A program made the position numbers and the translations under genes. From Bacteroidales bacterium (GTDB taxonomy: Bacteria > Bacteroidota > Bacteroidia > Bacteroidales > P3): 64,000 nucleotides of DNA. How positions within the stretch are numbered: position 1 is the stretch's first letter; each line of letters opens with the position of its first letter. Positions 23,203-59,065 of this stretch are shown here, piece after piece. Under the pieces are notes generated by a model. That model did no database searches. It was not told the origin of the DNA and was given only the letters and a program-made list of their open reading frames with translations. The stretch spans positions 1,072 to 65,071 of the forward strand of contig JAFXAD010000055.1 in the NCBI GenBank assembly GCA_017522065.1, in the 5' to 3' direction.

Positions 23203-23679
23203 CTACTGTGTGACAGCCCAAAACTGTATCTGCAAAGGCTCGGCGGCGGTGCCTTGCTGGCCGCCGTTGACGAAGGGGAAGGTGGTGTCGGTGTTGAAGA
23301 TGTTGTGCAGCTTGTGGGAGTAATAGCGTAGGGCTATCTGTCCGTAGGGCTGCGAAGGGGCGTGGATGAAGAGGAAGAAGCGCCCGAGGTCGTCGCACTG
23401 GGCAACGCCTACACATTCGTCGCCCACAAAGGCGCCGAGTCGGTCGTCGACGTCGGTCGTCCAGATGTCGGAGGGTACTGGCGTATCGTCGGCCATCTGC
23501 AGGTTCACCTGGATCACGGCGGTCATACTGCTCGAATAATCGTAGTCGGAATCGGCCACCCAGGCAGGGTCGTCGATGTTGCCTTGTATGGAAAACGGTT
23601 TTTCGCTGACTTCTTCCTTGCCACAGGAGGCAAGGAAGAAGAGAGCAGCGAGTGCTATTGTCATTATTTTGTTTTTCAT
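23203..23679 (-). CDS. lipoprotein with a domain homologous to a C-terminal module of the upstream giant protein
   Basis: Lipobox LASCG. ATGA overlap with the giant gene stop. Segment DDRLGAFVGDECVGVAQ...FFLFIHAPSQPYGQIALRYYSHKLHNIF aligns with NDVVVALLGNDIVGRAN...LYLTIHGNEAFEGMPVHFRLWQASTGRIY in the giant protein. Confidence 0.7.
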   Translation of the reverse strand: MKNKIMTIALAALFFLASCGKEEVSEKPFSIQGNIDDPAWVADSDYDYSSSMTAVIQVNLQMADDTPVPSDIWTTDVDDRLGAFVGDECVGVAQCDDLGRFFLFIHAPSQPYGQIALRYYSHKLHNIFNTDTTFPFVNGGQQGTAAEPLQIQFWAVTQ

Positions 23680-44473: not shown

Positions 44474-47400
44474 ATGCAGAATAAAGGACTTATCAGATTT
44501 TTAGCGATAGCCTTTGTGCTTGTTTGTTTGTTTCAATTGTCATTTTCTTTTGCTACAAAGAAGGTGGAGAATAAAGCCAAGGCCAACGCTGCAAAGTATG
44601 TCGAGAGTGCACAAGGGCAGAGTGATATTAATGCCTGTGTCAAAAAACAAGGCAACAGCGAGTTGAGTGCTGCTGAACTTAAGAATTTGACTGCTATCGT
44701 AACTGACTCGTTGCGTACTGTAAAAGAAACCTACTACCTTGATTCCATGGCTAATGAAAAAGTCTGGTTGGGTTTCACCTACAAGAAATGCCAAGCTCGC
44801 GAAATCAATCTTGGCCTCGACCTCAAGGGCGGTATGAATGTCATGCTTGAAGTTTCAACAGTCGATGTGGTAAAAGCTCTCGCCAACTATACCAACGACG
44901 AAACTTTCAACAAAGCTGTCGAAATGGCTCTGGAACAACAGAAGAAGTCTGTTAACGAGGATTTCGTAAGCCTTTTCTATGATGCCATAATTTCTATCAA
45001 ACCTGATGTCCGCCTCGCTGGATATTTCAGCAGCCAACTTACTGGCACGACTCTGAATGATGACAACAATACCATTCTCGCCAAACTGAAAGAAGAAACC
45101 AGCAGCGCTTATGACAGAACTTATGAAATCCTTCGCAAGCGTATCGACAAGTTCGGAGTTGCTCAGCCTACTATCCAGAAACTCCAGGCTTCCGAACGTA
45201 TCCTCGTCGAGCTCCCTGGTGTTAAAGATCCTCAGCGCGTGCGCAAACTTTTGAAAGGTACTGCTCAGCTCGAGTTCTGGGCTACATATAGTGGCGATAT
45301 GACAGATGCACGCCTGCTTAACGAATACAATCGTGTTGCCGGCTACCTTACCGCTACTGACGAATACCTTGCCGCTCGTCACAACAATAATACCGTGGAC
45401 TCAGTGGTGGCCGCTGACAGCAACGCTGTGGCTGACTCTGTTGCTACAACCGAACAGACTGAACTTGCTGGTGTTCCTGAAGCAGAAACCGACGCTCAGT
45501 CTGAACAGTATAGAAAAGAGCACCCCCTCATGTCTCTCTTCGCTCAGTGGCAGGGCTATCAACCCTATCCTCCGGTCGTCTTCCGCGCAACCGAGGCCGA
45601 CACTGCAGCTGTTAACCGCATGATTGCCGAAGGTATCCGCGCTGGCAAAATCAATGCCCGCGAAGTCAAATACCTCTGGTCTGTAAAACCTGTCGAAGAG
45701 AATTCTAATATCTTTGAACTTTATGCAATCAAGATTGAGGACTATGACAGAAACACAAACCTCCCCAAGGCTAAACTCGACGGAAGCGTGATTACGGACG
45801 CCCGCCAGGATTTCAGCAACACGGAAGGTAATGAGATTTCCATGTCGATGAATTCCGAAGGTGCTCACGCTTGGAAAAACATTACGCACGACAATATCGG
45901 TAAATGTGTCGCCATCGTTCTTGACGACCAGGTCTATTCCGCACCTCGCGTCAATGGCGAAATCGCCGGAGGCCGTTCCTCGATAACTGGTAACTTCACC
46001 CTCGATGAGGCAAAAGACCTCGCCAATGTCCTTAAGTCTGGTAAGCTCCCCGCTCCAGCACGCATCGTCCAGGAGGCTGTCGTAGGACCTTCGCTCGGTC
46101 AGGAATCAATCCACAAAGGACTTGTCTCTTTCATCCTTGCATTTATTATTGTACTTATATATATGGTCGTATTCTACAATCGTGCCGGTTGGGTCTCGGT
46201 TGTGGCTTTGGTGACCAACGTTTTCCTTCTGATGGGTGTGCTCGCATCGATTGGTTCAGTTTTGACTTTGCCTGGTATCGCAGGTATTGTCCTGACAATG
46301 GCAATGGCTGTCGACGGTAACGTTATTATATACGAACGTGTCAAGGAAGAACTGAGAGCAGGCAATAGTCTGTCCAACTCAATTGATAAGGGCTTCAAGA
46401 ATGCTATGTCGGCAATCATCGACGGTCAGGTCACTACCTTCCTCCTCGGTCTTGTGCTTATCATGTTCGGCTCAGGTACAATCCAGGGCTTCGCAGTGAC
46501 TCTCTGCATCGGTATTGTAACTTCGTTGTTCACGAGTATCTTCATTACCCGTCTGGTTATCGACTGGATGCTTAACCACAAGAAGAAAATCAACTTCTCG
46601 TTCAGCTTCAGCGAAAACTTCATGCGTAACGCCAACTTCGATTTCATGGGCAAACGCAAAGTTTTCTACATCATTGCTGCATGCGCTATCGTCCTTTGCC
46701 TTGTCGGTATTTTTGGCCGTCATTTAAGCATGGGCATCGATTTCACGGGTGGACGTACCTATGTGGTGCGTTTCGATCAGGATGTCAATGTCGTTGACGT
46801 TCGCGCAAGCTTGGCCGACGAGTTCGACGAAGCTCCTGAGGTCAAGTCATACGGCCCCAACAATCAGGTCAAGATTACCACCAACATCGTGGCCGAGGAT
46901 TACTACGAGGCTTACAGACAAGCTCACAATCTGTCAGCTAATGATACTATCACTGATGAGATGGTGATAAATGAAAAGCTGTTCGAAGGCACAAAGAAAT
47001 ATTTCTCAAAAACTGACGACGGCAAAGATATCTCACTGGCACAGTTCTCGAATGCCGATATTTATCCTTATGGAATTATTCAGTCCGAACAAGTGGAGGC
47101 TACAATGGCAACGGATATGAAACGCTCATCCATACTCGCTGTCCTTGGCGGCTTGCTTGTGATATTCGCCTACATCGGAATCCGCTTCAAGAGCTGGCGT
47201 TTCGGTATCGGTAGTATCACGGCTCTTGCTCATGATACAATTCTTATCATTGGTCTCTTTGCATTGCTGCGTGGCATCATGCCTTTCAGCCTTGATGTCG
47301 ACCAGTCGTTCATCGCAGCAATACTTACAGTGATCGGTTACTCTATCAACGCTACCGTGGTTATCTTCGACCGCGTGCGTGAAAACCGTAGCCTCTATCC

Positions 47401-47647
47401 CAAACGTACTCTCATTCAGCACATGAACGATGCCATCAATTCAACATTGGCTCGTACAATCAACACGTCCGGTACGACATTCTTCACACTGCTCATGATG
47501 TTCATCTTCGGTGGTGAAGTTATCCGCGGTTTCATATTCGCTTTGTTGATCGGCGTGCTCTGCGGTATGTTCTCCTCTGTATGTCTGGCATGCCCCATCG
47601 TATACGAGGTTAGCAAGAAGAGAGAGGAAAAAAGACTTCAGGCTTAA
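44474..47647 (+). CDS. secDF: protein translocase subunit SecDF fusion
   Basis: 1057 aa. SecD periplasmic domain (LGLDLKGGMNV) followed by two 6-TM bundles (AGIVLTMAMAVDGNVIIYERVKEE; TVIGYSINATVVIFDRVREN). Confidence 0.95.
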   Translation: MQNKGLIRFLAIAFVLVCLFQLSFSFATKKVENKAKANAAKYVESAQGQSDINACVKKQGNSELSAAELKNLTAIVTDSLRTVKETYYLDSMANEKVWLGFTYKKCQAREINLGLDLKGGMNVMLEVSTVDVVKALANYTNDETFNKAVEMALEQQKKSVNEDFVSLFYDAIISIKPDVRLAGYFSSQLTGTTLNDDNNTILAKLKEETSSAYDRTYEILRKRIDKFGVAQPTIQKLQASERILVELPGVKDPQRVRKLLKGTAQLEFWATYSGDMTDARLLNEYNRVAGYLTATDEYLAARHNNNTVDSVVAADSNAVADSVATTEQTELAGVPEAETDAQSEQYRKEHPLMSLFAQWQGYQPYPPVVFRATEADTAAVNRMIAEGIRAGKINAREVKYLWSVKPVEENSNIFELYAIKIEDYDRNTNLPKAKLDGSVITDARQDFSNTEGNEISMSMNSEGAHAWKNITHDNIGKCVAIVLDDQVYSAPRVNGEIAGGRSSITGNFTLDEAKDLANVLKSGKLPAPARIVQEAVVGPSLGQESIHKGLVSFILAFIIVLIYMVVFYNRAGWVSVVALVTNVFLLMGVLASIGSVLTLPGIAGIVLTMAMAVDGNVIIYERVKEELRAGNSLSNSIDKGFKNAMSAIIDGQVTTFLLGLVLIMFGSGTIQGFAVTLCIGIVTSLFTSIFITRLVIDWMLNHKKKINFSFSFSENFMRNANFDFMGKRKVFYIIAACAIVLCLVGIFGRHLSMGIDFTGGRTYVVRFDQDVNVVDVRASLADEFDEAPEVKSYGPNNQVKITTNIVAEDYYEAYRQAHNLSANDTITDEMVINEKLFEGTKKYFSKTDDGKDISLAQFSNADIYPYGIIQSEQVEATMATDMKRSSILAVLGGLLVIFAYIGIRFKSWRFGIGSITALAHDTILIIGLFALLRGIMPFSLDVDQSFIAAILTVIGYSINATVVIFDRVRENRSLYPKRTLIQHMNDAINSTLARTINTSGTTFFTLLMMFIFGGEVIRGFIFALLIGVLCGMFSSVCLACPIVYEVSKKREEKRLQA

Positions 47648-47674
47648 TAAATATAATGTATACAATATAATATT

Positions 47675-48100
47675 GTGGACTTCATTGATATCATAATAAC
47701 AATAGCCATTCTTGGTGTGGGTGGCCTTCTTTCCGGAGCAAAAAAAGGAAAGAAGGCTGCTCCGCAGCAATCTGCTCCAAGACCTGTGGCCCGCCCAGTC
47801 TTCGAAACTTTATTCGAGGATGACGACGATATATTTGATGAGGATGTCAATGAAGAGGTGTTCACCAGCGATTTCGCTGAAGATGTCAACGTTGAACGGG
47901 AAACCAACACTCAGGAAGAGTATTTCTCATACGAAAATCAAGATATGAATCAGACTTGGAAAGACACTTTCGAAAGTACAGAAAAGCCTGATTCCATGAC
48001 TAATGATATGGTTTCTGAAGAAACGGGGTATTTTGATGGCAAAATAGATATCCGTAAGGCTTTTATATATCAAACAATCTTGGAACGTGTGAATTACTGA
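47675..48100 (+). CDS. hypothetical protein with an N-terminal TM helix and a very acidic tail
   Basis: 141-aa ORF with a GTG start 27 nt after secDF. IIITIAILGVGGLLSG, then FEDDDDIFDEDVNEE. Confidence 0.45.
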   Translation: MDFIDIIITIAILGVGGLLSGAKKGKKAAPQQSAPRPVARPVFETLFEDDDDIFDEDVNEEVFTSDFAEDVNVERETNTQEEYFSYENQDMNQTWKDTFESTEKPDSMTNDMVSEETGYFDGKIDIRKAFIYQTILERVNY

Positions 48101-48180
48101 TTTTTCGTTCATCTGATGTCACTCTATAAGTAAATGAATAAATAAAATAAATAATTAACTGTCTTACAAAAACAACAAGT

Positions 48181-51100
48181 ATGTTTAGAAAGGTACTATT
48201 AACAATCGGGTTGCTTCTGGTCACTCAGGCAGTGGCCTTGGCACAGGGTACTATTAAAGGTACCATTACCGATGAATCTACCGGAGAACCCTTGATCGGT
48301 GCCAATGTCATCATCAAACAAGACGGACAGCTGGTATCAGGTGGACGTACAGACTTGGATGGTAACTATACTATCAAAGCTGTACAGGTAGGAAAGTATG
48401 ACATTGAGGTCTCTTATATGGGATATCAAACTGTCAAATCAGAGATTAACGTTAAGGCAACAGGCTTTACAGTTTACAACGAGAAACTGGGAAAATCGGC
48501 TGGCGGAAAACAGCTTCAAACCGTTGTTGTCAAAACTAACAAGGTGCCTGTTATCGAAATCGGTGCTCCAGAGTCTGGTACTCGTCTCTCGTCTGAGGAT
48601 ATCGGACGTATGCCGTCCAACTCTGTCGACGGAATCGTCGCAGCTGTCGCCGGTGTCGGATACAGCGATGGCGGCTCAGGTACGGCTCGTGGTGAAGAGG
48701 GTATGGTGACACAGGTCGGTGGCGTCCGTACTCGTACCGGTGTCAATGTCCCGAAAGAGGCAATCGCCGAAATCCAGGTCGTCCTCGGTGGTACACCTGC
48801 AAATATCGGTGAGGCAATCGGTGGTACTCAGATTATTACCCTCAAACCGCCTTCAAACAAGTTCATGGGTCTTGTCAAATATGAGACCTATCTCGATTAC
48901 CGTCTCAACAACAGCCTTGTTGTTTGGTTGACAGGTCCTGTCGCAAAGGCTGCCCTTAAAGATGAGAGTGGCAATAAGACCGGTACACGTACCCTTATCG
49001 GTTTCCGTTTCACCGGAACGGGCTCTTATTCCAAATTCGGTTACTACCGTCCTAAGGATGGACGCTACCTTGTCGTGAACGACGAAAAGGTTATGGAAAT
49101 CGAGAATTCGCCCATCGATTACGATCCTGTTGAGGGTACAGTCAACTACACCGCTCAGCATCTCCGCACTTCGGACTTCGTCGAAATCAAACGTCCTAAC
49201 GCTCGCAACTATTATGCAAACAAGGATCGTCAAGCTGATTTCGGCAGCTACTCCATCGCTCTTCAGGGTGCTTTGGATTTCCGTTTCACCGAACTTACGT
49301 CTTTGGTGCTGACTGGCGAATATGACTATTCTTATGGCCCGAACACAAGTCTTGCTTATTTCCCGCTCAACTTGCACAATGCTGCCAATGGCGTAAACAA
49401 GACTCACAATATGTCGATCACCGCTGATTTCACCCAGCGCTTCAAAGACCCTGAGCCTGTTGCTGACGAAAGTAATCCAGACGCCAAGTCGGAACCCGTT
49501 GTATCGAAGGTTATGTACAACATCACTGCTATGTACAACCGCTATACAACCAAGTCCTACAATGAGCAGTTCGGCGACGACCTCTTCAAATATGGTCATA
49601 TCGCTACTTTCTACAGAACTCAGACTCCTTCGTATGAAATCAGAACCGATTATGAGTATCAAGGAACCACAACGTCGGCTTATGTGCAGAACAGCTGGAT
49701 CGAGAATTCGCAGTTTGTAGCTCCCTCTGAGTACAACCCCATTCTTTCCAACTATACCACTCAGCTTTACAACATTCCTTCGCTGGCTCCGTATCTGAAC
49801 AGATTTGACAATATCCGTTCATTCAACGGCTTGTACAACGGTCAGAGCCCCTCATACATCTATGGTCTCTCTTCCTATGCCAACGTTGGTGTTCAGAACG
49901 CTTCGTACGCAAAACAGGAAAACAACTATTATTATGTGTCGGCTAAGGCTGCTGCAACCGTCAAGGGTCATGACCTTGAAATCGGATTCCAGTATGACCA
50001 GTACACTGCTGCATACTATGGCCTCTCGGCTTACAGCCTCTGGACCATCATGCGTCAGAACGCCAACGCCCATATCCTTAACCTCGACTTCGAAAGTCCT
50101 ATAGAACGCACCGTCGGTGACGTCCTGTATGTTGACTACAACCGTAAGTATGTCGAGGGTACCGAGACTTTCTCGGCTGAGGCTATCCGTAATGCCGTTG
50201 GTCTTAGCATGACCGACTGGCTCGACGTTGACCGCTACTCTCCAGATGATTTCAACTCATTTGGCGGCATCAACCTCTTCTCGGCAAATGAACTTTTCAA
50301 CAACGGTAACCAGATCGTCAGCTACTACGGCTTCGACCACACTGGTGAAAAATACCGCAGAGGTACTTGGCAGCTCGAAGACTTCTTCGACCCCGTCGGA
50401 CGTGGCCATAAGAACTTCCAGTATCTGCCTTCGTTCTCGCCCATCTATGCTGCTGGATACATCCAAGACAAGTTCTTCTTCCAGGATCTTATCTTCAACG
50501 TCGGTGTTCGCGTCGACTACTTCGATGGTAACCAAATGGTTCTTAAAGACCCCTACCTGCTCTATGAGTCTTACACAATTGGCGACCTCAAGAACGGTAA
50601 AGCCCCCTATAACACTGACAGAGCAAACAACGCTTTCCCAGAGGCTGCAACCGACGATTGGGTAGTCTATGTTAACGCATACGATGCCACCATTCCTACC
50701 GTAAGAGGTTATCGTAACGATGGTGTATGGTATAATAAAGAAGGTGTCGAGGTCTCTGCACCGAGCCTTATCTCGGGTGAGTCTGGTAAACCGACTCCTT
50801 ATCGTACCGTCGACAGCCGTATCCCGAACAGCAGCGGCAACTACGTCAAATCGAGTGCTTTCGAAGACTACAAGCCTCAGATTGTTGTCATGCCCCGTAT
50901 CGCATTCTCTTTCCCTGTCAACGATATGTCTCAGTTCAAGGCTAACTACGACATTATTGCACGTCGTCCCTCTTCGGGATGGCAAGCCGACTATCTCAGT
51001 TATCTCTACATGAGCCAGGTTACCGGTGCAATCAGCAACCCCAACCTGAAACCGGAACGTGTTACCAACTACGAGCTCGGTTTCCAGCAGGCTCTTAACA

Positions 51101-51960
51101 AAGACAAGACTGCTGCCCTCAGTATCTCGGCTTACTATAAGGAGACACGCGACCTTATTCAGTTGGTTCAGTACGCAGGTGCTGACCCCAACCAGAACTA
51201 CTATTCCTATGACAACCTCGATTTCAAAACTACCAAAGGTTTCTCCCTCTCTTTCGATATGCGTCAGAGCAACAACGTCCGTATCAATGCCAACTACACT
51301 CTCCAGTATGCCGAGGGTACAGGTTTGTCCGCGACAACAATGTCTGAACTTATCAAGGAAGGTTATACTACTCTTAAAATGCTGAATCCTATTGCCGACG
51401 ACCGCCGTCACGAGTTCAAAGCTAATGTCGACTACCGTCTTGGAAAGGAACAGGGTTGGAAGATTACTCGCACCGTTAAGGACAAAGACGGTAATCCCCG
51501 CAAGAAAGACATCTACCCGTTCCAAAATTTTGGTGTCAACTTCCTCGCTGTCGCACAGTCCGGCCGTCCCTACACAAGACAGTTCAGCAACACTCAGCAG
51601 ACTATCGTCGGAAGTTATCGTGGTGCACGTCTGCCTTGGGGCTTCTACTTCAATGTTGTCGTCGACAAGAGCTGGCCGATCGAAATCAAACGCGAAAACG
51701 GCAAGAACCGTCAGACTATGCTCAACGCTTCGGTCACTGTCAACAACCTCTTTGACATCAGAAATGTCACTGGCGTGTTCGCAGTCACCGGCAACCCCTC
51801 GGACAACGGTTACCTTACCGACCCGGAAACTCAGGCTGTTATCAACTCCTATCTCGATCCCGATTCCTACAGAGATCTCTACTCGATCTATCTGAACAAC
51901 GGATTCTGGAACTGGTCTTCGCCGAGAACTATCCGTGTCACGTTGACCTATAACTTCTAA
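48181..51960 (+). CDS. TonB-dependent-receptor-like outer-membrane barrel with an N-terminal CarboxypepD_reg domain (no SusD partner)
   Basis: Signal peptide. QGTIKGTITDESTGEPLIGANVIIKQ...SYMGY. Plug-like segment (IEIGAPESGTRLSSEDIGRMPSNSVDGIVAAVAGV). Long strand-rich region ending RVTLTYNF. Confidence 0.85.
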   Translation: MFRKVLLTIGLLLVTQAVALAQGTIKGTITDESTGEPLIGANVIIKQDGQLVSGGRTDLDGNYTIKAVQVGKYDIEVSYMGYQTVKSEINVKATGFTVYNEKLGKSAGGKQLQTVVVKTNKVPVIEIGAPESGTRLSSEDIGRMPSNSVDGIVAAVAGVGYSDGGSGTARGEEGMVTQVGGVRTRTGVNVPKEAIAEIQVVLGGTPANIGEAIGGTQIITLKPPSNKFMGLVKYETYLDYRLNNSLVVWLTGPVAKAALKDESGNKTGTRTLIGFRFTGTGSYSKFGYYRPKDGRYLVVNDEKVMEIENSPIDYDPVEGTVNYTAQHLRTSDFVEIKRPNARNYYANKDRQADFGSYSIALQGALDFRFTELTSLVLTGEYDYSYGPNTSLAYFPLNLHNAANGVNKTHNMSITADFTQRFKDPEPVADESNPDAKSEPVVSKVMYNITAMYNRYTTKSYNEQFGDDLFKYGHIATFYRTQTPSYEIRTDYEYQGTTTSAYVQNSWIENSQFVAPSEYNPILSNYTTQLYNIPSLAPYLNRFDNIRSFNGLYNGQSPSYIYGLSSYANVGVQNASYAKQENNYYYVSAKAAATVKGHDLEIGFQYDQYTAAYYGLSAYSLWTIMRQNANAHILNLDFESPIERTVGDVLYVDYNRKYVEGTETFSAEAIRNAVGLSMTDWLDVDRYSPDDFNSFGGINLFSANELFNNGNQIVSYYGFDHTGEKYRRGTWQLEDFFDPVGRGHKNFQYLPSFSPIYAAGYIQDKFFFQDLIFNVGVRVDYFDGNQMVLKDPYLLYESYTIGDLKNGKAPYNTDRANNAFPEAATDDWVVYVNAYDATIPTVRGYRNDGVWYNKEGVEVSAPSLISGESGKPTPYRTVDSRIPNSSGNYVKSSAFEDYKPQIVVMPRIAFSFPVNDMSQFKANYDIIARRPSSGWQADYLSYLYMSQVTGAISNPNLKPERVTNYELGFQQALNKDKTAALSISAYYKETRDLIQLVQYAGADPNQNYYSYDNLDFKTTKGFSLSFDMRQSNNVRINANYTLQYAEGTGLSATTMSELIKEGYTTLKMLNPIADDRRHEFKANVDYRLGKEQGWKITRTVKDKDGNPRKKDIYPFQNFGVNFLAVAQSGRPYTRQFSNTQQTIVGSYRGARLPWGFYFNVVVDKSWPIEIKRENGKNRQTMLNASVTVNNLFDIRNVTGVFAVTGNPSDNGYLTDPETQAVINSYLDPDSYRDLYSIYLNNGFWNWSSPRTIRVTLTYNF

Positions 51961-51989
51961 TTTGTTATAATGTGAAAAATTATAAAGAA

Positions 51990-54900
51990 ATGAAAAATAT
52001 ATTTATTAAAACAGTCTTGATGGCTTTTGTGTTCTCATCTATGATGGGAACAGCCGTGGCCCGCGAATGCACTACATGCAAGAAGGCAACCACGACAAAG
52101 ACTGCTATGCAGTCGAAGGCCGCTGCGTGCAAAAGAGCGCAGAGTACTGCTGAGCTGAACGTGAACAATGTCCGCGCATTAATTAACGGTTACGGCAATA
52201 TGTGGTATGACGGTAGTATCTCACAGTATCACATTCCTAAAGATGCCAACACAACTCCTATGTATTGTGCTGCTCTTTGGATCGGTGGTACCGATGTTAA
52301 CCAACAGCTTCGTCTTGCAGCCCTCCGTTTCGGTCAGGATGGCGATGACTATTGGCCGGGTCCCCTCACCGTAGATGGCGCTGCCGATATCTCTATCGAG
52401 GTGTGTAACTACTATGACCGCCACTACAAAATCACCCAGACGGAAGTCCAGACTTTCATGCAGATGTTCGACTATTCCAAGTTCCCTGCTGAACGCCGCG
52501 ACAACTATGATGAGAGTCTCGTCGCTCAAGTGATAAAGGAATGGCCTGCTCATGGCAATTTCGCCAACCAGTCCTATTACCTGGCTCCCTTCTTCGACGC
52601 TAATGGCGACCACAGATACAACTACCAGGACGGTGACTATCCGTACTATGACTTCGACAATGCTCTCTGCCCGCGTACTCTTAAAGCTGCCCTTAAACCC
52701 GGTGAAAACTATTCTCCGAAACCGACTATGGACGACTCCGCCGGAATCGTCAAGAAGGGAACCGGTCTGCTCTCAGACCAGGTGCTTAAAGGCGACCAAA
52801 CAATCTGGTGGGTGTTCAACGATATGGGTAACACTCATACCGAGTCGGGTGGACAACCTATCGGTCTCGAAATCCGTGCACAGGCTTTCGCTTTCTCGAC
52901 CAACGACGAGATCAATAACATGACCTTCTATTCGTACGAAATCATCAACCGTTCCACATACGAACTGCGCAACACTTACTTCAGCCAGTGGGTTGACCCG
53001 GATTTGGGTTACGCTCAGGACGACTATGTAGGTTGCGACGTCAAACGTGGTTTGGGTTATTGCTATAACGGTGACGAAGAGGATGGTCCCGGAACGGGCC
53101 AGTACAGTGGTATCCCCCCAGCAGTTGGTATCGACTTCTTCCAAGGCCCTTACATGGATCCTGACGGTATCGACAACCCCAGAATCGACATCTCTAAGAT
53201 GGCTTTATACTATCCTGAAAAACTCGCTGAATATCGTCTCGTCAATGGCGGATACGACACTATCAAACTCAACGACGATGCTGACCTCTACTATCCTCTC
53301 GCTTGGTATTTCCAAAAAGACGACTCTATCGGAAACTGTGCTATCAATGGTGTGAACTTCGGTAACAACATTGTTGATGACGAACGTTTCGGTATGCGCC
53401 GCTTCGTTTATTATAACAACTCTGCTACTGCAGACAACGGTGAACCCGACAAGGCTACCGACTACTACAACTACCTGCAGGGTATATGGAGAAATGGCCG
53501 TCCCATGACCTTCGGAGGCAACGCTATCAATACCGGTACTTCTACCATCAAGTGCGACTTCATGTTCCCCGACGACAGCGACCCCTTGCTCTGGGGAACC
53601 AACGGTGTCCGTCCCGACGACGAGTTCCTGCCTTTCGGTTGGAATGAAACAAGCATCGCCGGCAATTCTCCTTCAGACCGCCGTTTCATGCAGTCTGCAG
53701 GTCCTTTCACCCTGATGCCCGGTGCTGTCAACTATATTACCGTAGGTATTCCTTTCGCCCAGGCCACCAGCGGTTCTGCTTGGACTTCGGTCGGACTGCT
53801 CCGCGAAATCGACGATGTCTGCCAGGCTCTCTTCGAAAACTGCTTCAAGGTTCTTGATGGTCCAGACGCTCCTACACTCGTCGTTCAGGAAATGGATAAA
53901 GAGGTTATCCTCTACATCACTTACGAGAATCCTTCTTCAAACAACTACAACGAGAAATACAACGAGGAAGATCCTTCTATCGTTCGTACTTATATCGATA
54001 ATGGCAAGACTGTTGCCTACACCAAAGACCAACGCAGCTACAAGTTCGAAGGTTATCAGATCTATCAGCTCGCCAATGCCAGCGCTTCTGTCGCTGACAT
54101 CGGAGATGAGACTAAAGCACGCCTCGTCTTCCAGTGCGATGTCGAGAACTACTACGATGCTGTCTCTGCTATCGATACCGTTGCAATAACCGAAAATGGT
54201 GTCGTTACAGGCTATCGTTATGATACCACTTATAACGACAATCCCACCATTCCTATCGGAAAACTTGTAAACTACAACACCAACTCTTCTACTGGTATCC
54301 TTACCGGCAAGATTATGGTTGATGGCGAAAACAGCGGTATCAAACACGTTGTCCGTATCACTACCGACCAGTTTGCCAAGGGTAACAATACCAACCTCGT
54401 TAATAATAAAGAATACTATTATGTTTGTGTCGCTTACGCACACAACCGTTACAAAGAGTATTCTCAGACCGACCCGTCTAAACTTGATGGACAGAAAGAG
54501 CCTTACCTCGCTGGCCGTAAGAACGAAAAGGGCGGTACTATCTCTCCTGTCACCGCCAAACCTCACGATCCTTCGAGCGAAAACGGTGGTACCATCGTCA
54601 ATGCTACCTTCGGCATGAGTCCTAACATCACCCGTATCGACGGTTATGGCAACGGCGGTAACGCTCTTCGTCTGACCGAAGAGTCCATCCAGGAACTCAT
54701 GGGTGCTCCCGGCGAACCTGCTAAGGCTCCCGGCGAATTCACCATGGTTGATGGCGTTCAGCAGATGCAGAACCCCTGTATCATTACCCGTCCTCGTTAC
54801 GAGCAGAACTATGGTCCTATCAATGTGCGTGTCATCGACCCGCTGAACATCAAGCAAGGAACATTCTACATCAAATTCAACGGTGTCGACAACACATCGA

Positions 54901-56837
54901 AATGGGTTATCTACAAGCCGGACGGCTCTCCGCTCTATTATGACTCTATTAGCGGCACAAGCGTCTTCTCCGATACTGCTGATTTCGTTATCGGTCGTTA
55001 CAACGAGCAGCTCTTCCTCGACCTCGGTATTGCAGTAGCTATCACTAACCCGAAGGCAATTGCTACCGACCTCGTCTATGGAACCGAAGATGTCTCGATG
55101 GGTGGTCTTATCGCTGATGGAACATTCATCTCGGCTACGATGAACTTCGATGACCCAAGCCACCAGTGGTTAAGTGGTATTCCTGACAATGACAACTCCA
55201 TTATTACGAACTGGATCCGAAGCGGTTCTCAGTATTCGGAAGGTAACCAACAGACCTTCTTGTCAAATACCTATCTCCATAGCCCTGTCACAGGTTCCGA
55301 ACCTTACCTCGATGACGACTACTACAAAGTCGACATCGACCCGAACTATCTTGACCGTGTCAACTATTACGGTGTCGACCGTTATCAGGCATACGAGAAA
55401 GTCCTCATGGGATTGTGGAGCCCCTATGGTTTGGCTTCATATCGCGAATACCACCCCGCCTTCTCGTTCCGCTACTATTTGGCCGATCAGAGTATCCACG
55501 ATTCTCTGAACGACGGTAGGGAATACAACGAAATCATGCATGAGACTTTGATCTACACCAAGAACAAATCTCTCAAGTATAACGACTTCACCAAGCTCCC
55601 GAGCGTTCGCATCGTTCTCACAAGCGACACCAGCAAGTGGACCCGCTGCCCGGTTCTTGAAATGTGCGACGACTACACTCAGGCCGAAGGCAACGCACGC
55701 CGTTTCCAGTTGCGTAAACACAAATCTATCGACAAGAATGGTGACACTTGCGACGCCACAACACCGTCAACCGATCCTGGCAGCGCCAACTACATCGACG
55801 CTTACGGTATGGGATGGTTCCCCGGCTATGCAATCAACCTCGTGACTGGTGAGCGTCTCAACATCATGTACGGTGAAGACTCACGTTACATCCAGTTCAA
55901 CGGACGTGATATGATGTGGAACCCGGTCAGCACATACACATACGGTACAGGCAACTACGTTATGGGTGGCCGCCACTACATCTATATTATGAATGCTGTC
56001 AAGCAGAAATTCTCAAATATCAACTACAACACTGTAGGAAGTGCTTCGAACAACAGACATTTCGACTATCGTTCACCTTCTTACGATGCCGGTCGCTGGG
56101 CTGTCAGCATGCTCAAGTCTCTCGACCACTTCTTCGAGTGCCCGTTCACCAACCCTTCCGCAAGAACTGCTTACTACGGCAACTTCAACAACGGTCTGCT
56201 CAAGGCTGACGGCTCTCCCAAGATGCTTCCTATGCGTGACTCTGCCGCATTCCTCTTCTCGACTGTGGCCTGGGTCAACATGCCACTCGCAAGCGAGGCT
56301 ATCAACAATCCTAAGGATATTCCTACCAATGTGACAATCGATATCAACGTCAACAACCGTTATGGCAAATACTTGAGCAATAACGAGACTTCTGTCGGTT
56401 CGAGCAACTACAATAACCCGATGTACCAGTTTGATCTTACCAGCGACATTGTAACCGAAACAGGTGTTGCTACTCGTGCCGATGCACGTCAAAGCTACAA
56501 GGATTCCATCATGGATGCTATCAATGTCGTTCCTAACCCCTATTACAGTTATTCTACTTATGAAACCCTCAGTCAGTTGGAAACGAAGGTACGCTTCATC
56601 AATGTTCCCGGCAACACGACAATCAACATCTACACCGTCGACGGAACCTTGGTAAGAACCATACCTAACACTCCTTCCAACACAACTACGGTCGATTGGG
56701 ACCTCCACAACCACAATGGTATTCCTATCGCCGGTGGTATGTATCTGATCCATTTCAGCACTCCGGGCATCGGAGAGAAAATTGTCAAATGGTTCGGTAC
56801 AATGCGTCCTGTTGACTTGAGTCGTTTCCAATTCTAA
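51990..56837 (+). CDS. 1615-aa secreted protein of unknown function with a CTD-like / FlgD-Ig-like C-terminal beta-sandwich plus an extra tail
   Basis: ATG chosen at MKNIFIKTVLMAFVFSSMMGTAVA; the longest ORF starts with GTG at 51972. C-terminus VVPNPYYSYS...INIYTVDGTLV...GGMYLIHFSTPGIGEKIVKWFGTMRPVDLSRFQF. Confidence 0.8.
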   Translation: MKNIFIKTVLMAFVFSSMMGTAVARECTTCKKATTTKTAMQSKAAACKRAQSTAELNVNNVRALINGYGNMWYDGSISQYHIPKDANTTPMYCAALWIGGTDVNQQLRLAALRFGQDGDDYWPGPLTVDGAADISIEVCNYYDRHYKITQTEVQTFMQMFDYSKFPAERRDNYDESLVAQVIKEWPAHGNFANQSYYLAPFFDANGDHRYNYQDGDYPYYDFDNALCPRTLKAALKPGENYSPKPTMDDSAGIVKKGTGLLSDQVLKGDQTIWWVFNDMGNTHTESGGQPIGLEIRAQAFAFSTNDEINNMTFYSYEIINRSTYELRNTYFSQWVDPDLGYAQDDYVGCDVKRGLGYCYNGDEEDGPGTGQYSGIPPAVGIDFFQGPYMDPDGIDNPRIDISKMALYYPEKLAEYRLVNGGYDTIKLNDDADLYYPLAWYFQKDDSIGNCAINGVNFGNNIVDDERFGMRRFVYYNNSATADNGEPDKATDYYNYLQGIWRNGRPMTFGGNAINTGTSTIKCDFMFPDDSDPLLWGTNGVRPDDEFLPFGWNETSIAGNSPSDRRFMQSAGPFTLMPGAVNYITVGIPFAQATSGSAWTSVGLLREIDDVCQALFENCFKVLDGPDAPTLVVQEMDKEVILYITYENPSSNNYNEKYNEEDPSIVRTYIDNGKTVAYTKDQRSYKFEGYQIYQLANASASVADIGDETKARLVFQCDVENYYDAVSAIDTVAITENGVVTGYRYDTTYNDNPTIPIGKLVNYNTNSSTGILTGKIMVDGENSGIKHVVRITTDQFAKGNNTNLVNNKEYYYVCVAYAHNRYKEYSQTDPSKLDGQKEPYLAGRKNEKGGTISPVTAKPHDPSSENGGTIVNATFGMSPNITRIDGYGNGGNALRLTEESIQELMGAPGEPAKAPGEFTMVDGVQQMQNPCIITRPRYEQNYGPINVRVIDPLNIKQGTFYIKFNGVDNTSKWVIYKPDGSPLYYDSISGTSVFSDTADFVIGRYNEQLFLDLGIAVAITNPKAIATDLVYGTEDVSMGGLIADGTFISATMNFDDPSHQWLSGIPDNDNSIITNWIRSGSQYSEGNQQTFLSNTYLHSPVTGSEPYLDDDYYKVDIDPNYLDRVNYYGVDRYQAYEKVLMGLWSPYGLASYREYHPAFSFRYYLADQSIHDSLNDGREYNEIMHETLIYTKNKSLKYNDFTKLPSVRIVLTSDTSKWTRCPVLEMCDDYTQAEGNARRFQLRKHKSIDKNGDTCDATTPSTDPGSANYIDAYGMGWFPGYAINLVTGERLNIMYGEDSRYIQFNGRDMMWNPVSTYTYGTGNYVMGGRHYIYIMNAVKQKFSNINYNTVGSASNNRHFDYRSPSYDAGRWAVSMLKSLDHFFECPFTNPSARTAYYGNFNNGLLKADGSPKMLPMRDSAAFLFSTVAWVNMPLASEAINNPKDIPTNVTIDINVNNRYGKYLSNNETSVGSSNYNNPMYQFDLTSDIVTETGVATRADARQSYKDSIMDAINVVPNPYYSYSTYETLSQLETKVRFINVPGNTTINIYTVDGTLVRTIPNTPSNTTTVDWDLHNHNGIPIAGGMYLIHFSTPGIGEKIVKWFGTMRPVDLSRFQF

Positions 56838-56866
56838 TTATCATCAATCTTTAAAATTTTGCAGAA

Positions 56867-57934
56867 ATGAAAAGAATATTAAGTATATTGACTGTAATGG
56901 TCCTCTCAGCGTCTTTGACGGCACCTTCGCTCTTTGCCGGCAATGACAATCGTCGAGGAACGGCAGGCGCCACGGAGTTGCTTATCAACCCGTGGGCCCG
57001 CAGCTCCAGTTGGGCCGGAATCAATACTTCGTGCGCTCGTGGCATTGATGCTTTCTTTAGCAATATTGCCGGCCTTTCGTTTGTCGAGAAGATGGAATTT
57101 GTCTACACCAATACAATGCTCTATGGTGGACGTTCCGGTCTCGTCAGTGGCGCAACAATCAACTCGTTCGGTTTGGCTTTCCGCTTAGGCGATGCCGGCG
57201 TGCTCGGTGCCTATGTTATGGCAATGGGATTTGGCGACCTTCAGAAAACAACTGTCGAAAGCCCTGAACCTGGCTCTAACGGTACTGTCTCTCCGACATT
57301 CATGAATCTTAATGTTGCATTCTCATACTCCTTCACCAACTCAATCCATGGTGGTGCCAACGTTAAGATTATAACCGAGTCGACTGACGATGTCAACGCA
57401 ACGGGCGTTGCAATTGATGCTGGTATCCAGTACCAGACTGGTGAAAACGACGAGCTCAAGTTCGGTATCTCTCTGAAGAATATCGGACCCGCCCTCAGTT
57501 TCGGCGGTACGGGCGAATCGTTCACGGTGGTCAACGAAGCTGGCAATTCCATGACTGTCGAGTTCCGCTCGGCTGAAATGGAGTTACCTACCTGCCTCAA
57601 TATCGGTCTCTCCTACGACCTCTTGTTCGATAAATGGAATCAGCGCCTCACCATCGCTGGAAACTTCACTTCGAATGCCTTCCTTCGCGACAACTTCGGT
57701 CTGGGATTTGAGTATTCGCTGCTTGACATGTTCCAGCTTCGTGCAGCCTACCTCTATCAGACTGGCATCTTCGACGGCGACAACCGCACAACCGCCAATA
57801 CCGGTGTCCACGCAGGTGCTTCTGTAATCCTTCCGCTCAACAAGGAAAAAGGTACATCTCTCTCACTCGACTATGCATTTAGAACAACAGCTTTGAAGGG
57901 TACCCATTCAATCGGAGCTACCTTCAAGTTCTAA
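56867..57934 (+). CDS. PorV/PorQ-family (FadL-fold-like) outer-membrane protein
   Basis: Signal peptide. GTAGATELLINPWARSSSWAGINTS...DAFFSNIAGLSF resembles the PorV/PorQ N-terminal signature. Ends SIGATFKF. Confidence 0.7.
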   Translation: MKRILSILTVMVLSASLTAPSLFAGNDNRRGTAGATELLINPWARSSSWAGINTSCARGIDAFFSNIAGLSFVEKMEFVYTNTMLYGGRSGLVSGATINSFGLAFRLGDAGVLGAYVMAMGFGDLQKTTVESPEPGSNGTVSPTFMNLNVAFSYSFTNSIHGGANVKIITESTDDVNATGVAIDAGIQYQTGENDELKFGISLKNIGPALSFGGTGESFTVVNEAGNSMTVEFRSAEMELPTCLNIGLSYDLLFDKWNQRLTIAGNFTSNAFLRDNFGLGFEYSLLDMFQLRAAYLYQTGIFDGDNRTTANTGVHAGASVILPLNKEKGTSLSLDYAFRTTALKGTHSIGATFKF

Positions 57935-57961
57935 GACTAATAATCACACATATCGAAAGTT

Positions 57962-57995
57962 AGGAAAGGTCTTTCTCAGGCCTTTCCTACTTTTT
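57962..57995 (+). terminator. intrinsic terminator after the three-gene OM module
   Basis: AGGAAAGG-loop-CCTTTCCT followed by ACTTTTT. Confidence 0.55.
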
Positions 57996-58017
57996 AACGT
58001 AAAAAACAAACTCCAAA

Positions 58018-58491
58018 ATGTCAGAAATAAAGTATTATAGCGAAGAGGGTCTGCAAAAACTGAAAGACGAACTTCATCATCTTATCGCTGTCGAGCGACC
58101 GGCAGCATCAGCAGCCATTGCCGAGGCTCGCGACAAAGGCGACCTCTCTGAAAATGCTGAATATGATGCTGCAAAAGAAGCTCAAGGTCATCTTGAAGCT
58201 CGCATTTCCAAACTTCAGGATCTGATTGCTAATGCCCGTTTGCTCGACGAATCAAAAATCGACACTTCTAAAGTGCTTCTCCTCTCCAAAATAACAATCA
58301 AAAACGTGAAGAACAATATGAAACAGGTCTATACGATTGTTCCTGAGAGCGAAGCCAACCTGAAACAGGGCCTTATATCTGTTTCCTCGCCGTTTGCACA
58401 GGCTTTTCTCGGAAAGAAGGCTGGCGACAATGTCGAAGTCGTAGTACCTGCCGGTACAATGCATTTCGAGATTCTCAGTGTTGAAAGATAA
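58018..58491 (+). CDS. greA: transcription elongation factor GreA
   Basis: GDLSENAEYDAAKEAQ coiled-coil tip motif and the C-terminal SPFAQAFLGKKAGDNVEV motif. Confidence 0.95.
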   Translation: MSEIKYYSEEGLQKLKDELHHLIAVERPAASAAIAEARDKGDLSENAEYDAAKEAQGHLEARISKLQDLIANARLLDESKIDTSKVLLLSKITIKNVKNNMKQVYTIVPESEANLKQGLISVSSPFAQAFLGKKAGDNVEVVVPAGTMHFEILSVER

Positions 58492-58552
58492 GATGTTGTA
58501 CCTGTACGGACTTTACCTTGATTCTATAACAATCCTTAATCATTAAACCGCT

Positions 58553-58945
58553 ATGGCAAGCATTTTTTCAAAAATTGTTGCAGGTGAGATTCCCTGCTAT
58601 AAAGTCGCCGAGACGGATCACTGTCTGGCATTCCTCGATGTAAACCCTGTCGTTCGCGGCCATGTACTCTGCATCCCTAAAAAAGAGGTCGACTACATTT
58701 TCGACCTCGATGACGATCTTTTTGTAGAATTGCACCGCTTCAGCCGCAAGGTGGCTAAGGGCCTCAAAAAGGTCTGTCCGTGTATAAAGATTGGTGTCGC
58801 CGTTGTCGGAATAGACGTTCCTCATACGCACATTCATCTTATGCCGTTGAATAACCCCGGTGATCTTAATTTCAGCCACCATATCAAGATGGAACCTGAC
58901 GAGATGAAAGCTCTGGCCGACGAAATTGCTGCTGCAATCGAGTAG
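58553..58945 (+). CDS. HIT (histidine triad) family protein
   Basis: FSKIVAGEIPCYKVAE...FLDVNPVVRGHVLCIPK and the HTHIHLMP triad. Confidence 0.9.
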   Translation: MASIFSKIVAGEIPCYKVAETDHCLAFLDVNPVVRGHVLCIPKKEVDYIFDLDDDLFVELHRFSRKVAKGLKKVCPCIKIGVAVVGIDVPHTHIHLMPLNNPGDLNFSHHIKMEPDEMKALADEIAAAIE

Positions 58946-58978
58946 GCATAATGCTTTTCCGAACTCGTTTCATGATTT

Positions 58979-59023
58979 AAAAAAGCCTTCGGAGCAGAGG
59001 AATGCTCCGAAGGCTTTCGTTTT
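58979..59023. terminator. bidirectional intrinsic terminator
   Basis: A-run, then GCCTTCGGAGCA-GAGGAA-TGCTCCGAAGGC, then TTTCGTTTT. Sits between the convergent HIT and cargo genes. Confidence 0.7.
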
Positions 59024-59065
59024 AGGAAATGTTTTTAAGGTTACGACGTTTTCCGGACAGGAGTC

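Follow-up and report, generated by a model that had tools for sequence, protein, structure and literature searches.

A conserved Bacteroidota operon encoding a TonB-dependent transporter, a 1615-residue protein with a T9SS CTD-like domain, and a PorV/PorQ-family barrel

PorZ and PorU keep their C-terminal domains (CTDs), which stay bound to PorQ and PorV (PMC10202324; PMC12365241), and for type B cargo the cognate PorP/SprF barrel sets the final surface location (PMC12618676). A link between such barrels and TonB-dependent proteins has a precedent, C. hutchinsonii PorV co-purifying with a TonB-dependent receptor (PMC8564354). The alginate locus of Rhodothermus marinus contains the run tonB-hypA-hypB, annotated as a TonB receptor, a T9SS type A protein and a PorV/PorQ protein (PMC9530828, Fig. 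2 legend). Here we describe a gene trio of the same order from a Bacteroidales bacterium, found in a 64,000-nt stretch of contig JAFXAD010000055.1 (the window). The first-pass annotation of the window stated that no functional description of such a trio was known, and our literature search, which found no functional study of it, agrees.

Operon layout and genomic neighbourhood

Genes 1, 2 and 3 form a single operon (Table 1), because they share a strand, are separated by 29-nt spacers and are followed by a single strong terminator. The three genes, both spacers and the sole hairpin terminator were found where the first-pass annotation had placed them. The start of gene 2 is the ATG at 51990, the one that homologues use; an upstream GTG at 51972, which they do not use, was considered and rejected. 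Within 47500-59100 the terminator is the strongest terminator-like site of the + strand, with a folding energy of -20.5 kcal/mol (z = -5.9 relative to shuffles) and an equally good fold in 0/200 shuffles.

Table 1. Features of the operon; positions are those of the window.
Feature	Position	Strand	Description
Gene 1	48181..51960	+	ORF, 1259 aa; TonB-dependent transporter-like outer-membrane protein with N-terminal extension, plug, barrel and Phe end
Gene 1 CarboxypepD_reg domain	48250..48474	+	residues 24-98; PF13620 62.4 bits, PF13715 61.3 bits
Gene 1 plug	48565..48828	+	~residues 129-216; PF07715, sub-threshold here, strongly matched by orthologues
Spacer gene 1/gene 2	51961..51989	+	29 nt
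Gene 2	51990..56837	+	ORF, 1615 aa; secreted protein with body, T9SS CTD-like domain and conserved tail
Gene 2 signal peptide	51990..52061	+	residues 1-24, read from the sequence; putative cleavage between ...GTAVA and RE
Gene 2 C-terminal Ig-like sandwich	56511..56792	+	residues ~1508-1601; T9SS CTD, most like PorZ/PorU
Gene 2 tail	56790..56834	+	residues 1601-1615, WFGTMRPVDLSRFQF, past the last CTD strand
Spacer gene 2/gene 3	56838..56866	+	29 nt
Gene 3	56867..57934	+	ORF, 355 aa; PorV/PorQ-family (FadL-like) outer-membrane barrel, subfamily distinct from PorV and PorQ
Intrinsic terminator, operon end	57961..57995	+	12-bp hairpin (57961-57989), then T-run

All 80 of the related genome loci, and the majority of those from metagenomes, show the order gene 1-gene 2-gene 3-GreA-HIT. 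Among the metagenome loci, gene 1 lies directly upstream of gene 2 in 61/68, gene 3 is adjacent to it in 65/73, and both flank it in 53 of the 62 that are testable; an arrangement recurring in all 80 genome loci and in so many metagenome loci is not due to chance. The synteny check that the first-pass annotation had called for thus holds far past close relatives, linkage persisting down to ~35% gene 2 identity, with spacers of ~20-30 nt wherever gene calls exist. Many of the carriers are uncultured Bacteroidota, and across very different habitats the same housekeeping neighbours are retained, namely GreA, HIT, RuvC and sometimes SecDF. Judged by this synteny, the trio is no local oddity but a deeply conserved operon whose neighbours are housekeeping genes. 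A search of the window for riboswitches and other Rfam elements found none, and no gene for a regulator adjoins the operon.

The three proteins

The product of gene 1 is a TonB-dependent transporter that has a plug and, at its N-terminus, a CarboxypepD_reg domain. Its Pfam matches are CarboxypepD_reg (62 bits), TonB_dep_Rec_b-barrel (56 bits) and OMP_b-brl_3, and the N-terminal domain also matches the N-terminal extension in PDB 9hfj_A, a SusC homologue. The plug-like segment noticed at first pass is sub-threshold in this copy (PF07715, 15.4 bits against a cut-off of 23.9), but covers profile positions 5-107 of 107 and is preceded by LQTVVVK, which by eye looks like a TonB box; Plug is matched in 15/19 orthologues and CarboxypepD_reg in 19/19, and the family is one of genuine plugged transporters. 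The protein ends in ...LTYNF. SusC/RagA models, searched with gene 1 and its orthologues, gave no match, and no SusD-like gene directly follows, the next gene being gene 2, which is not SusD-like. Pfam and the sequence itself thus bear out the N-terminal domain, barrel, terminal Phe and missing SusD of the first-pass description.

Gene 3 was assigned at first pass to the PorV/PorQ family, and profile searches uphold this: it exceeds the cut-off of the NCBIfam PorV_fam model NF033709 (111.2 bits, cut-off 90), as do 30/30 orthologues tested, and the orthologue profile matches solved PorV (PDB 6h3i_F, E = 5.3e-19). Both equivalog models are failed, PorQ at 52.5 bits (cut-off 220) and PorV at 41 (cut-off 250); on these scores gene 3 is neither, PorQ being the nearer of the two. 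PorP matches are weak and found in only 5/30 orthologues, and the BamG model gives 20.5 bits against a cut-off of 250.

Gene 2 encodes a Sec-exported non-lipoprotein of 1615 aa that ends in a PorZ/PorU-like T9SS CTD and a FGxxRPxDLxxF tail. It has no lipobox, and throughout its family there are hydrophobic N-termini without a conserved lipobox Cys, so that a surface location requires a different anchor. Pfam, NCBIfam and PDB sequence searches with the full-length protein gave no match. In AF2 models of residues 40-1615, the stretch 40-1500 showed no convincing PDB fold, and for a model of residues 40-960 the fold search of the PDB gave nothing significant. Large and rich in beta structure, the body lacks a catalytic signature; the signal peptide and the absence of a recognisable catalytic motif are as first described. 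The family comprises 3796 representatives (clusters at 50% identity), and its most conserved region is the N-terminal half. At two loci gene 2 is present in tandem, and the N-terminal part of the second copy has diverged.

The C-terminus had been read as a type-A CTD/FlgD-Ig sandwich. As to fold this stands: AF2 predicts a sandwich, with most 10-residue blocks at ~80-90 mean pLDDT and lower stretches that include a segment below 50, and the best Foldseek matches are PorZ (5m11, E = 5.1e-6) and PorU (6za2, E = 1.2e-4), followed by FlgD and the T9SS substrate CTDs 8glk_D, 8gl8_D and 8gl6_D. The domain is sub-threshold for TIGR04183 (19.8 bits, curated cut-off 23) and for Pfam FlgD_ig (19.2 bits, cut-off 27) and has no Por_Secre_tail match; because of the TIGR04183 and Por_Secre_tail results, T9SS dependence of gene 2 is something we infer. 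Among NCBIfam models, the last 145 aa match best that of PorZ, in its C-terminal region (30.8 bits, equivalog cut-off 260). The CTD is thus closer to the CTDs that PorZ and PorU retain than to those of generic cargoes.

The extra tail past the CTD, which had been noticed in this single copy as unlike the cargoes, proved to be a hallmark of the family. It is carried by 119/120, 136/150 and 115/115 members in three sets, and R1606, P1607 and D1609 are invariant among 51 diverse homologues. Its last six residues have a pLDDT below 50 when modelled in isolation, which is what a segment that binds a partner would be expected to show. An adjacent gene 3 is found for 0/4 tail-less members, as against 65/73 metagenome loci, most of them tail-bearing (Fisher p = 4e-4, from few cases and phylogenetically non-independent sequences). 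A gene 1 neighbour is likewise absent beside the tail-less members. There are exceptions in both directions: (i) one tail-less copy (L168) comes immediately after a gene 3 homologue; (ii) tail-bearing homologues of some lineages (L122, L137, L139, L148 and L153) lack both gene 1 and gene 3 in their vicinity. The four canonical cargoes of the window do stop straight after the last CTD strand as described (...LLKK, ...LIKK, ...IVKK, ...IVVR), and all four match Por_Secre_tail, so ordinary T9SS cargo is present in the organism.

Proposed function and alternatives

None of the three computable checks named by the first-pass annotation (gene 3 family, synteny, gene 2 C-terminal fold) spoke against its view of the trio, which was either a private route for exporting or anchoring gene 2 or a surface capture complex with gene 2 in the place of SusD. 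By analogy with PorQ and PorZ, we tentatively favour, with somewhat less than even confidence, a SusD-less surface complex in which gene 2 is exported by the T9SS and held permanently on gene 3, together with the transporter. Gene 2 would cross the outer membrane through the T9SS of the cell, and the PorU sortase would leave its CTD uncleaved. CTD and tail would remain docked on the dedicated gene 3 barrel, much as PorZ on PorQ and PorU on PorV, thereby tethering the ~1500-residue body at the cell surface with no need of a lipid anchor. Less certainly, the tethered protein would sit on top of the gene 1 barrel or at its side, and could then be a surface capture or lid partner in TonB-powered uptake, a role taken elsewhere by the lipoproteins SusD, RagB and BtuG; since no binding or catalytic fold is recognisable in the body, this capture role is an analogy. 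The absence of an Rfam element and of an adjoining regulator, with the fixed place beside housekeeping genes, suggests a constitutive function and not a substrate-induced utilisation locus. Against the favoured reading, tail-bearing gene 2 homologues occur in some lineages with neither gene 1 nor gene 3 nearby, and one tail-less copy follows a gene 3 homologue. The fixed GreA/HIT/SecDF position, moreover, is no less in keeping with a housekeeping role in the envelope than with nutrient uptake.

Such a role is the core of an alternative that we regard as unlikely: the trio would be a T9SS-related envelope module, a paralogous counterpart of P. gingivalis PorF, PorZ and PorQ, with gene 2 acting in surface biogenesis (e.g. 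glycolipid presentation, or surface-protein processing or attachment) and gene 1 being structural or energising and not an importer. The nearest described relatives of all three proteins are indeed T9SS outer-membrane parts (PorQ/PorV for gene 3, PorZ/PorU for the gene 2 CTD), PorF has been described as a TonB-dependent-receptor-like T9SS component (PMC8564354), and the SecDF/GreA/HIT/RuvC surroundings are kept across habitats without an adjoining regulator or an Rfam element in the window. The PorZ match is however limited to the CTD (30.8 bits against 260), the gene 2 body giving no PorZ match in sequence or fold searches; PorF, which we compared with gene 1 by description, is reportedly plug-less, while the gene 1 family has a plug; and the Rhodothermus parallel is located in a polysaccharide locus. 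A role for gene 1 as exporter, with gene 2 passing through it and being held at the surface by gene 3 and the T9SS unneeded, we consider improbable. It could appeal to Oar, a TonB-dependent transporter required for secretion of Myxococcus PopC (PMC6434023), to the extension-plug-barrel build of gene 1, to its position immediately upstream of the cargo gene in 61/68 loci, and to a gene 2 CTD below the curated type A thresholds. That CTD is structurally a T9SS CTD nonetheless, in an organism with ordinary T9SS cargo; it is difficult to see how a protein of ~175 kDa (estimated from 1615 residues) would pass a 22-strand barrel, there are tail-bearing homologues without an adjacent gene 1, and an Oar-type model is absent among the Pfam/NCBIfam matches of gene 1 and its orthologues.

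It is quite doubtful, finally, that gene 2 is a T9SS-delivered surface adhesin or coat sitting on its own barrel in the manner of SprB-SprF, with gene 1 as a conserved neighbour that shares no function with it. It is established that T9SS cargo can be anchored by a PorP/SprF or PorQ barrel of its own (PMC12618676; PMC10202324), the large beta-rich body without a catalytic signature would suit an adhesin, and the diverged N-terminal part of the tandem second copies at two loci is what a variable surface region would be expected to give. The linkage of gene 1 is nevertheless as tight as that of gene 3 over very wide divergence, with spacers of ~20-30 nt, and in the gene 2 family conservation is highest in the N-terminal half, not the usual pattern of an adhesin or coat.

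Comparison with described systems

Of the systems joining a TonB-dependent transporter to a secreted protein or to the T9SS, Oar-PopC of Myxococcus xanthus (PMC6434023) belongs to another phylum and has no CTD, PorV-like barrel or operon link. PorF (PG0534) and CHU_1606 are TonB-receptor-like barrels linked functionally or physically to the T9SS and PorV (PMC8564354); going by the descriptions, PorF lacks a plug and CHU_1606 is of 91 kDa, whereas gene 1 has plug and extension and 1259 aa. The BamG-BamH pair of the Bacteroidota BAM uses a FadL/PorV-like 14-strand barrel as the dock of a large surface protein (PMC12611786; PMC12578637), but BamH is a lipoprotein and BamG binds BamA, and gene 3 is far below the BamG cut-off. 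In SusC-SusD, RagA-RagB and BtuB-BtuG, as in the trio, the gene for a transporter that carries an N-terminal extension immediately precedes the gene for its large surface partner; the trio differs in having neither a SusC/RagA signature nor a SusD, and its partner, gene 2, is not a lipoprotein and is apparently anchored through its CTD on a third protein, the gene 3 barrel.

In SprB-SprF and the Fjoh type B pairs a cargo gene adjoins its own PorV-like barrel gene, as here, but the gene 2 CTD is of the type A/PorZ kind, gene 3 is PorV/PorQ and not PorP/SprF, and the trio includes a TonB-dependent transporter. The Rhodothermus tonB-hypA-hypB run matches the gene order of the trio by annotation only and is uncharacterised there too; with lengths of 2805, 2181 and 1056 nt its genes are smaller, and they form part of a polysaccharide utilisation locus. 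The PorQ-PorZ/PorV-PorU attachment complex of Porphyromonas gingivalis likewise combines a PorV/PorQ-family barrel with a protein bearing a retained-type CTD. PorQ and PorV are the best equivalog-level matches of gene 3, although both cut-offs are failed, and neither the propellers of PorZ nor the peptidase of PorU is related to the body of gene 2. In the PorZ chain 5m11_A, 14 residues remain after the last CTD position of the alignment, while gene 2 family members run on through the last strand and into the tail; and the trio encodes barrel and CTD protein together, with a transporter gene.

The three genes form one operon

The three genes lie on the same strand, are separated by two spacers of 29 nt each, and are followed after gene 3 by a 12-bp hairpin and T-run with a folding energy of -20.5 kcal/mol (z = -5.9 vs shuffles); the first-pass annotation had described this layout accurately, and the trio is one operon. 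We place the start of gene 2 at ATG 51990 and not at GTG 51972, since its close homologues begin MKNIF... Genes 2 and 3 have an identical start context, GAAATGAAAA (51985-51995 and 56862-56872), and the spacers preceding them are AT-rich, with no evident Shine-Dalgarno sequence.

Features of the trio operon and its surroundings
Feature	Coordinates	Strand	Description
Giant T9SS cargo	23676-33137	-	3153 aa; Por_Secre_tail
Fused SecDF gene	44474-47647	+	Upstream of the trio
141-aa ORF	47675-48100	+	GTG start; between SecDF and gene 1
Gene 1	48181-51960	+	ORF, 1259 aa
Gene 2	51990-56837	+	ORF, 1615 aa
Gene 3	56867-57934	+	ORF, 355 aa
Terminator	57961-57995		12-bp hairpin + T-run, 3' of gene 3
Giant T9SS cargo	59066-63775	-	1569 aa; Por_Secre_tail

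The SecDF gene lies directly 5' of the trio in every rumen-clade locus whose contig extends that far, and precedes it in metagenome loci down to ~46% gene 2 identity; in more distant lineages it is absent from this place and other genes precede gene 1. The ORF that separates SecDF from gene 1 is hydrophobic at its N-terminus and very acidic in the rest of its length. It is poorly conserved, and may not be a real gene, since it was detected in just 1 of 80 related genome loci (L001, 53% identity). On the 3' side of the trio are GreA, a HIT-family gene and then an opposite-strand T9SS cargo gene. An Rfam scan of the whole window gave no matches, hence no riboswitch 5' of gene 1, and no tRNA genes were found in the window. 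A sigma-70 promoter scan was uninformative (19 sites vs 15 expected); Bacteroidota use a different consensus.

The host encodes ordinary T9SS cargo, with four Por_Secre_tail proteins in the window. Two of these are giants whose genes lie in stretches of 57-62% G+C, most of the 32-60 kb region being at 42-50%; the excess could come from amino-acid composition or from foreign origin. Read from its listed ATG, a provisional start near the window edge, the 1569-aa cargo opens with MFGDMPKVYDEM... and has no obvious signal peptide.

The three proteins and the gene 2 tail

Gene 1 combines an N-terminal CarboxypepD_reg domain with a receptor-type barrel (PF00593, 56 bits, and PF14905, 51.8 bits, each with a cut-off of 27) and a terminal Phe. 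The window copy aligns with the whole Plug profile at 15.4 bits, below the cut-off of 23.9; Plug is matched by 15 of 19 gene 1 orthologues at E <= 1e-3 and is present in the precomputed annotation of distant loci. Ahead of the plug, LQTVVVK resembles a TonB box, a putative assignment made by eye. The earlier reading of a CarboxypepD_reg receptor ending in Phe, with no SusD-like lipoprotein next to it, agrees with Pfam and with the sequence: neither a SusD domain nor a lipobox was found in gene 2, the protein encoded 3' of gene 1. No SusC/RagA model occurs among the NCBIfam matches of gene 1 and 18 orthologues, and gene 1 was rejected as a SusC; with no SusC/RagA signature and no SusD lipoprotein gene downstream, the locus was likewise rejected as a SusC/SusD-type utilisation locus. 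Homology to Oar is unsupported, there being no Oar-type model among the family matches of gene 1 and its orthologues, though the two might be analogous in function. Given the domains present and the lack of any SusC, RagA or Oar-type match, we classify gene 1 as a TonB-dependent transporter of generic type, with an N-terminal extension and a probable plug.

The proposed PorV/PorQ membership of gene 3 was borne out by profile searches. It scores 111.2 bits on NF033709, the PorV/PorQ family model (cut-off 90), over profile positions 2-326 of 326, and the same model is matched by all 30 gene 3 orthologues examined. A profile of the 30 orthologues matches the solved F. johnsoniae PorV (6h3i_F, E = 5.3e-19) and, more weakly, the FadL-family proteins TodX and TbuX. 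Gene 3 was rejected both as PorQ proper (NF033711, 52.5 bits vs an equivalog cut-off of 220) and as PorV proper (NF033710, 41 bits vs 250). BamG/BamH identity was also rejected, as gene 3 scores 20.5 bits vs 250 on the BamG model and gene 2 is not a lipoprotein. Gene 3 represents a separate subfamily among the PorV/PorQ-like barrels. The NCBIfam result for the orthologues (A6) includes weak matches from 22 of the 30 to NF052325, 'putative type IX sorting system protein PorV2', a curated PorV-like family of its own.

The signal peptide of gene 2 lacks a lipobox. Searches of Pfam, NCBIfam and PDB sequences returned no full-length family match, the CTD region alone being matched. AlphaFold2 models built from a 51-sequence alignment reached pLDDT 74 and pTM 0.71 for residues 40-960, and pLDDT 81 and pTM 0.74 for residues 930-1615. 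No convincing PDB relative was found by fold search for residues 930 to ~1500; for residues 40-960 the best candidate, with beta-sandwich portions of glycoside hydrolases (E = 3e-3, TM-score 0.18), was not accepted.

In the model, the ~95 residues preceding the tail form an Ig-like sandwich, for which the best Foldseek match is PorZ (5m11, E = 5.1e-6, 23% identity over 106 columns), followed by PorU (6za2, E = 1.2e-4) and, lower, by FlgD and the CTDs of translocon-caught T9SS substrates (8glk_D, 8gl8_D, 8gl6_D). The best NCBIfam match of the last 145 aa is likewise the C-terminal region of the PorZ model (30.8 bits, E = 1e-7). PorZ and PorU are reported as the two T9SS proteins that retain their CTD, bound to PorQ and PorV (PMC10202324; PMC12365241). 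Gene 2 was rejected as a PorZ itself, scoring 30.8 bits vs 260 on NF052228 with model positions 651-750 (the CTD region) alone aligned; the fold search of residues 40-960 contains no PorZ match. A full-length PorZ comprises two beta-propellers and a CTD. On the generic type A model TIGR04183 the C-terminus scores 19.8 bits, below the cut-off of 23; PF18962 gave no match even at E <= 10, and the sole Pfam match is FlgD_ig (19.2 bits vs 27). Type A proteins should stop after the last strand, and gene 2 has 14-15 residues more. The type-A CTD sandwich of the first-pass annotation thus stands as a fold, by its likeness to PorZ, PorU and substrate CTDs, and falls short of the curated cut-off for type A.

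Beyond its final CTD strand (...GEKIVKW), gene 2 runs on as FGTMRPVDLSRFQF, whereas the four Por_Secre_tail cargoes of the window end immediately after the equivalent strand. This extra tail, already noticed in the single sequence, is conserved family-wide: with the consensus K-W/F-F-G-x-x-R-P-x-D-L-x-x-F, it is carried by 119/120 close homologues, 136/150 representatives and 115/115 profile matches, and R1606, P1607 and D1609 are invariant across 51 diverse sequences. The final six residues have pLDDT < 50 when the protein is modelled alone. A tail so highly conserved, and of such low confidence in isolation, may fold onto a partner.

Five tail-less members were looked up (loci L165, L166, L167, L169 and L168), and these end like ordinary cargo, shortly beyond the final CTD strand (...KWAGVIRK, ...KWVKAGM, ...KWFGGLRI). 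Both gene 1 and gene 3 are missing from the visible flanks of four of them, and the fifth, L168, sits directly 3' of a gene 3 homologue. An adjacent downstream gene 3 was found for 0/4 tail-less copies vs 65/73 metagenome loci (Fisher p = 4e-4, from few cases and non-independent sequences).

Family and gene neighbourhood

An exhaustive HMMER search with gene 2 residues 416-1615 found 3796 family representatives (at 50% identity) with E <= 1e-3, 674 of them with E <= 1e-30. Members are mostly 1300-1700 aa long and, where named at source, are called 'hypothetical protein' or 'T9SS type A/C-terminal target domain-containing protein'. By the taxon labels of their MAG records they belong to uncultured Bacteroidales, Lentimicrobiaceae, Bacteroidota and Flavobacteriales, with one MAG labelled KSB1; the samples are from rumen, gut, digester, freshwater and marine habitats. 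Among the ~3800 clusters no member has a Pfam domain, and no published function was found. NCBI gives the name 'YCF48-related protein' to one branch, with members P0264 and P0308 (1687 aa), suggesting that a beta-propeller-like insertion has been added in some members.

Gene order was compared in two sets of loci. The 80 genome loci, from rumen and gut Bacteroidales MAGs with 54-91% gene 2 identity, have SecDF, gene 1, gene 2, gene 3, GreA and usually HIT wherever the contig extends. In the 80 metagenome loci, from many habitats and with 34-73% gene 2 identity, a same-strand adjacent gene 1 was found in 61/68 testable cases, an adjacent gene 3 in 65/73 and both in 53/62; GreA follows gene 3 in 50/50. 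Around three distant members the gene order reads gene 1 (with Plug), gene 2, a gene 3 homologue of 353-368 aa, GreA, HIT and RuvC. The neighbourhood check that the first-pass annotation had called for thus finds the order of the trio kept, in the genome loci wherever it is visible.

The exceptions are solitary gene 2 copies adjoining unrelated housekeeping genes. Five such homologues (L122, L137, L139, L148, L153), with neighbours including superoxide dismutase, Met-tRNA synthetase and histidine kinase, keep the tail, often with a final I, L or M in place of F; solitary tail-bearing copies imply that the cluster has been broken up in some lineages. In two metagenome loci (L151:6001-15784 and L124:3980-13676) the trio is followed by a second gene 2 copy and then by GreA. 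The L151 copies share an identical C-terminal stretch of ~850 residues and have clearly diverged over the N-terminal ~590; this looks like a partial duplication or gene conversion of recent date, the N-terminal part being variable, or possibly like an assembly artefact. The two L124 copies are 78% identical along their whole length.

A proposed role and its alternatives

We propose that the T9SS would carry gene 2 across the outer membrane, that its CTD would avoid cleavage by PorU, and that CTD and tail would remain docked on gene 3, much as PorZ is on PorQ. Such docking would hold the gene 2 body at the cell surface without a lipid; this anchoring step, taken alone, we consider fairly probable. 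The very tight linkage to gene 1 further suggests that the anchored protein works with the transporter, in which case gene 2 may, in the simplest model, serve a TonB-powered uptake complex as its lid or surface partner, in the place taken elsewhere by SusD, RagB or BtuG lipoproteins. The composite of T9SS export, anchoring on gene 3 and a lid for the gene 1 uptake complex is tentative, falling slightly short of what we would call probable.

The earlier statement that such a trio has no functional description agrees with the literature search: in the literature searched, the sole find on PorV-/PorQ-like paralogues beside TonB receptors was a figure legend, an unstudied annotation in which the Rhodothermus marinus alginate locus is drawn as a TonB receptor, a T9SS type A protein and a PorV/PorQ protein (PMC9530828). 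Both this gene order and the co-purification, in Cytophaga hutchinsonii, of PorV and a TonB-dependent receptor (PMC8564354) fit the uptake-complex model.

Other roles can be envisioned for the same three proteins. The housekeeping neighbourhood, with no adjacent regulator gene and no Rfam element, would also suit a T9SS-related envelope module, a counterpart of PorF, PorZ and PorQ, which we hold to be unlikely. By analogy with Oar/PopC (PMC6434023), gene 2 might instead leave the cell through gene 1 in a private TonB-powered export, an improbable route in our estimation; slightly less probable still is a gene 2 that serves as an adhesin or coat protein anchored at the surface, the transporter being a bystander. 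A broader form of the lid model is doubtful, if somewhat less remote than these: the trio may represent an unrecognised class of outer-membrane machine, widespread in Bacteroidota, in which a giant T9SS-delivered lid free of lipid, locked by CTD and tail on a PorQ-like barrel, gates a TonB-dependent transporter for housekeeping import or export. In the radical version of this reading, gene 1 itself would be the TonB-powered exporter of gene 2.

If the uptake-complex model is true, a transporter lid can be built without lipid, a secretion signal open to cleavage becomes a permanent anchor through a short C-terminal motif, and a role is found for a conserved, probably constitutively expressed 10-kb operon of many uncultured Bacteroidales. 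The parts of the trio are of known kinds, namely the PorV/PorQ family, the T9SS CTD fold and TonB-dependent transporters. Its novelty lies in a tail that is conserved, a gene 2 body whose fold cannot be recognised and an operon that is deeply conserved. Among PorV-like barrels, PorV is known to shuttle cargo, and PorQ and PorP/SprF to anchor gliding adhesins and a small number of T9SS parts, and the TonB-dependent transporters of Bacteroidota are known to work with surface lipoproteins; the trio operon unites these two themes.
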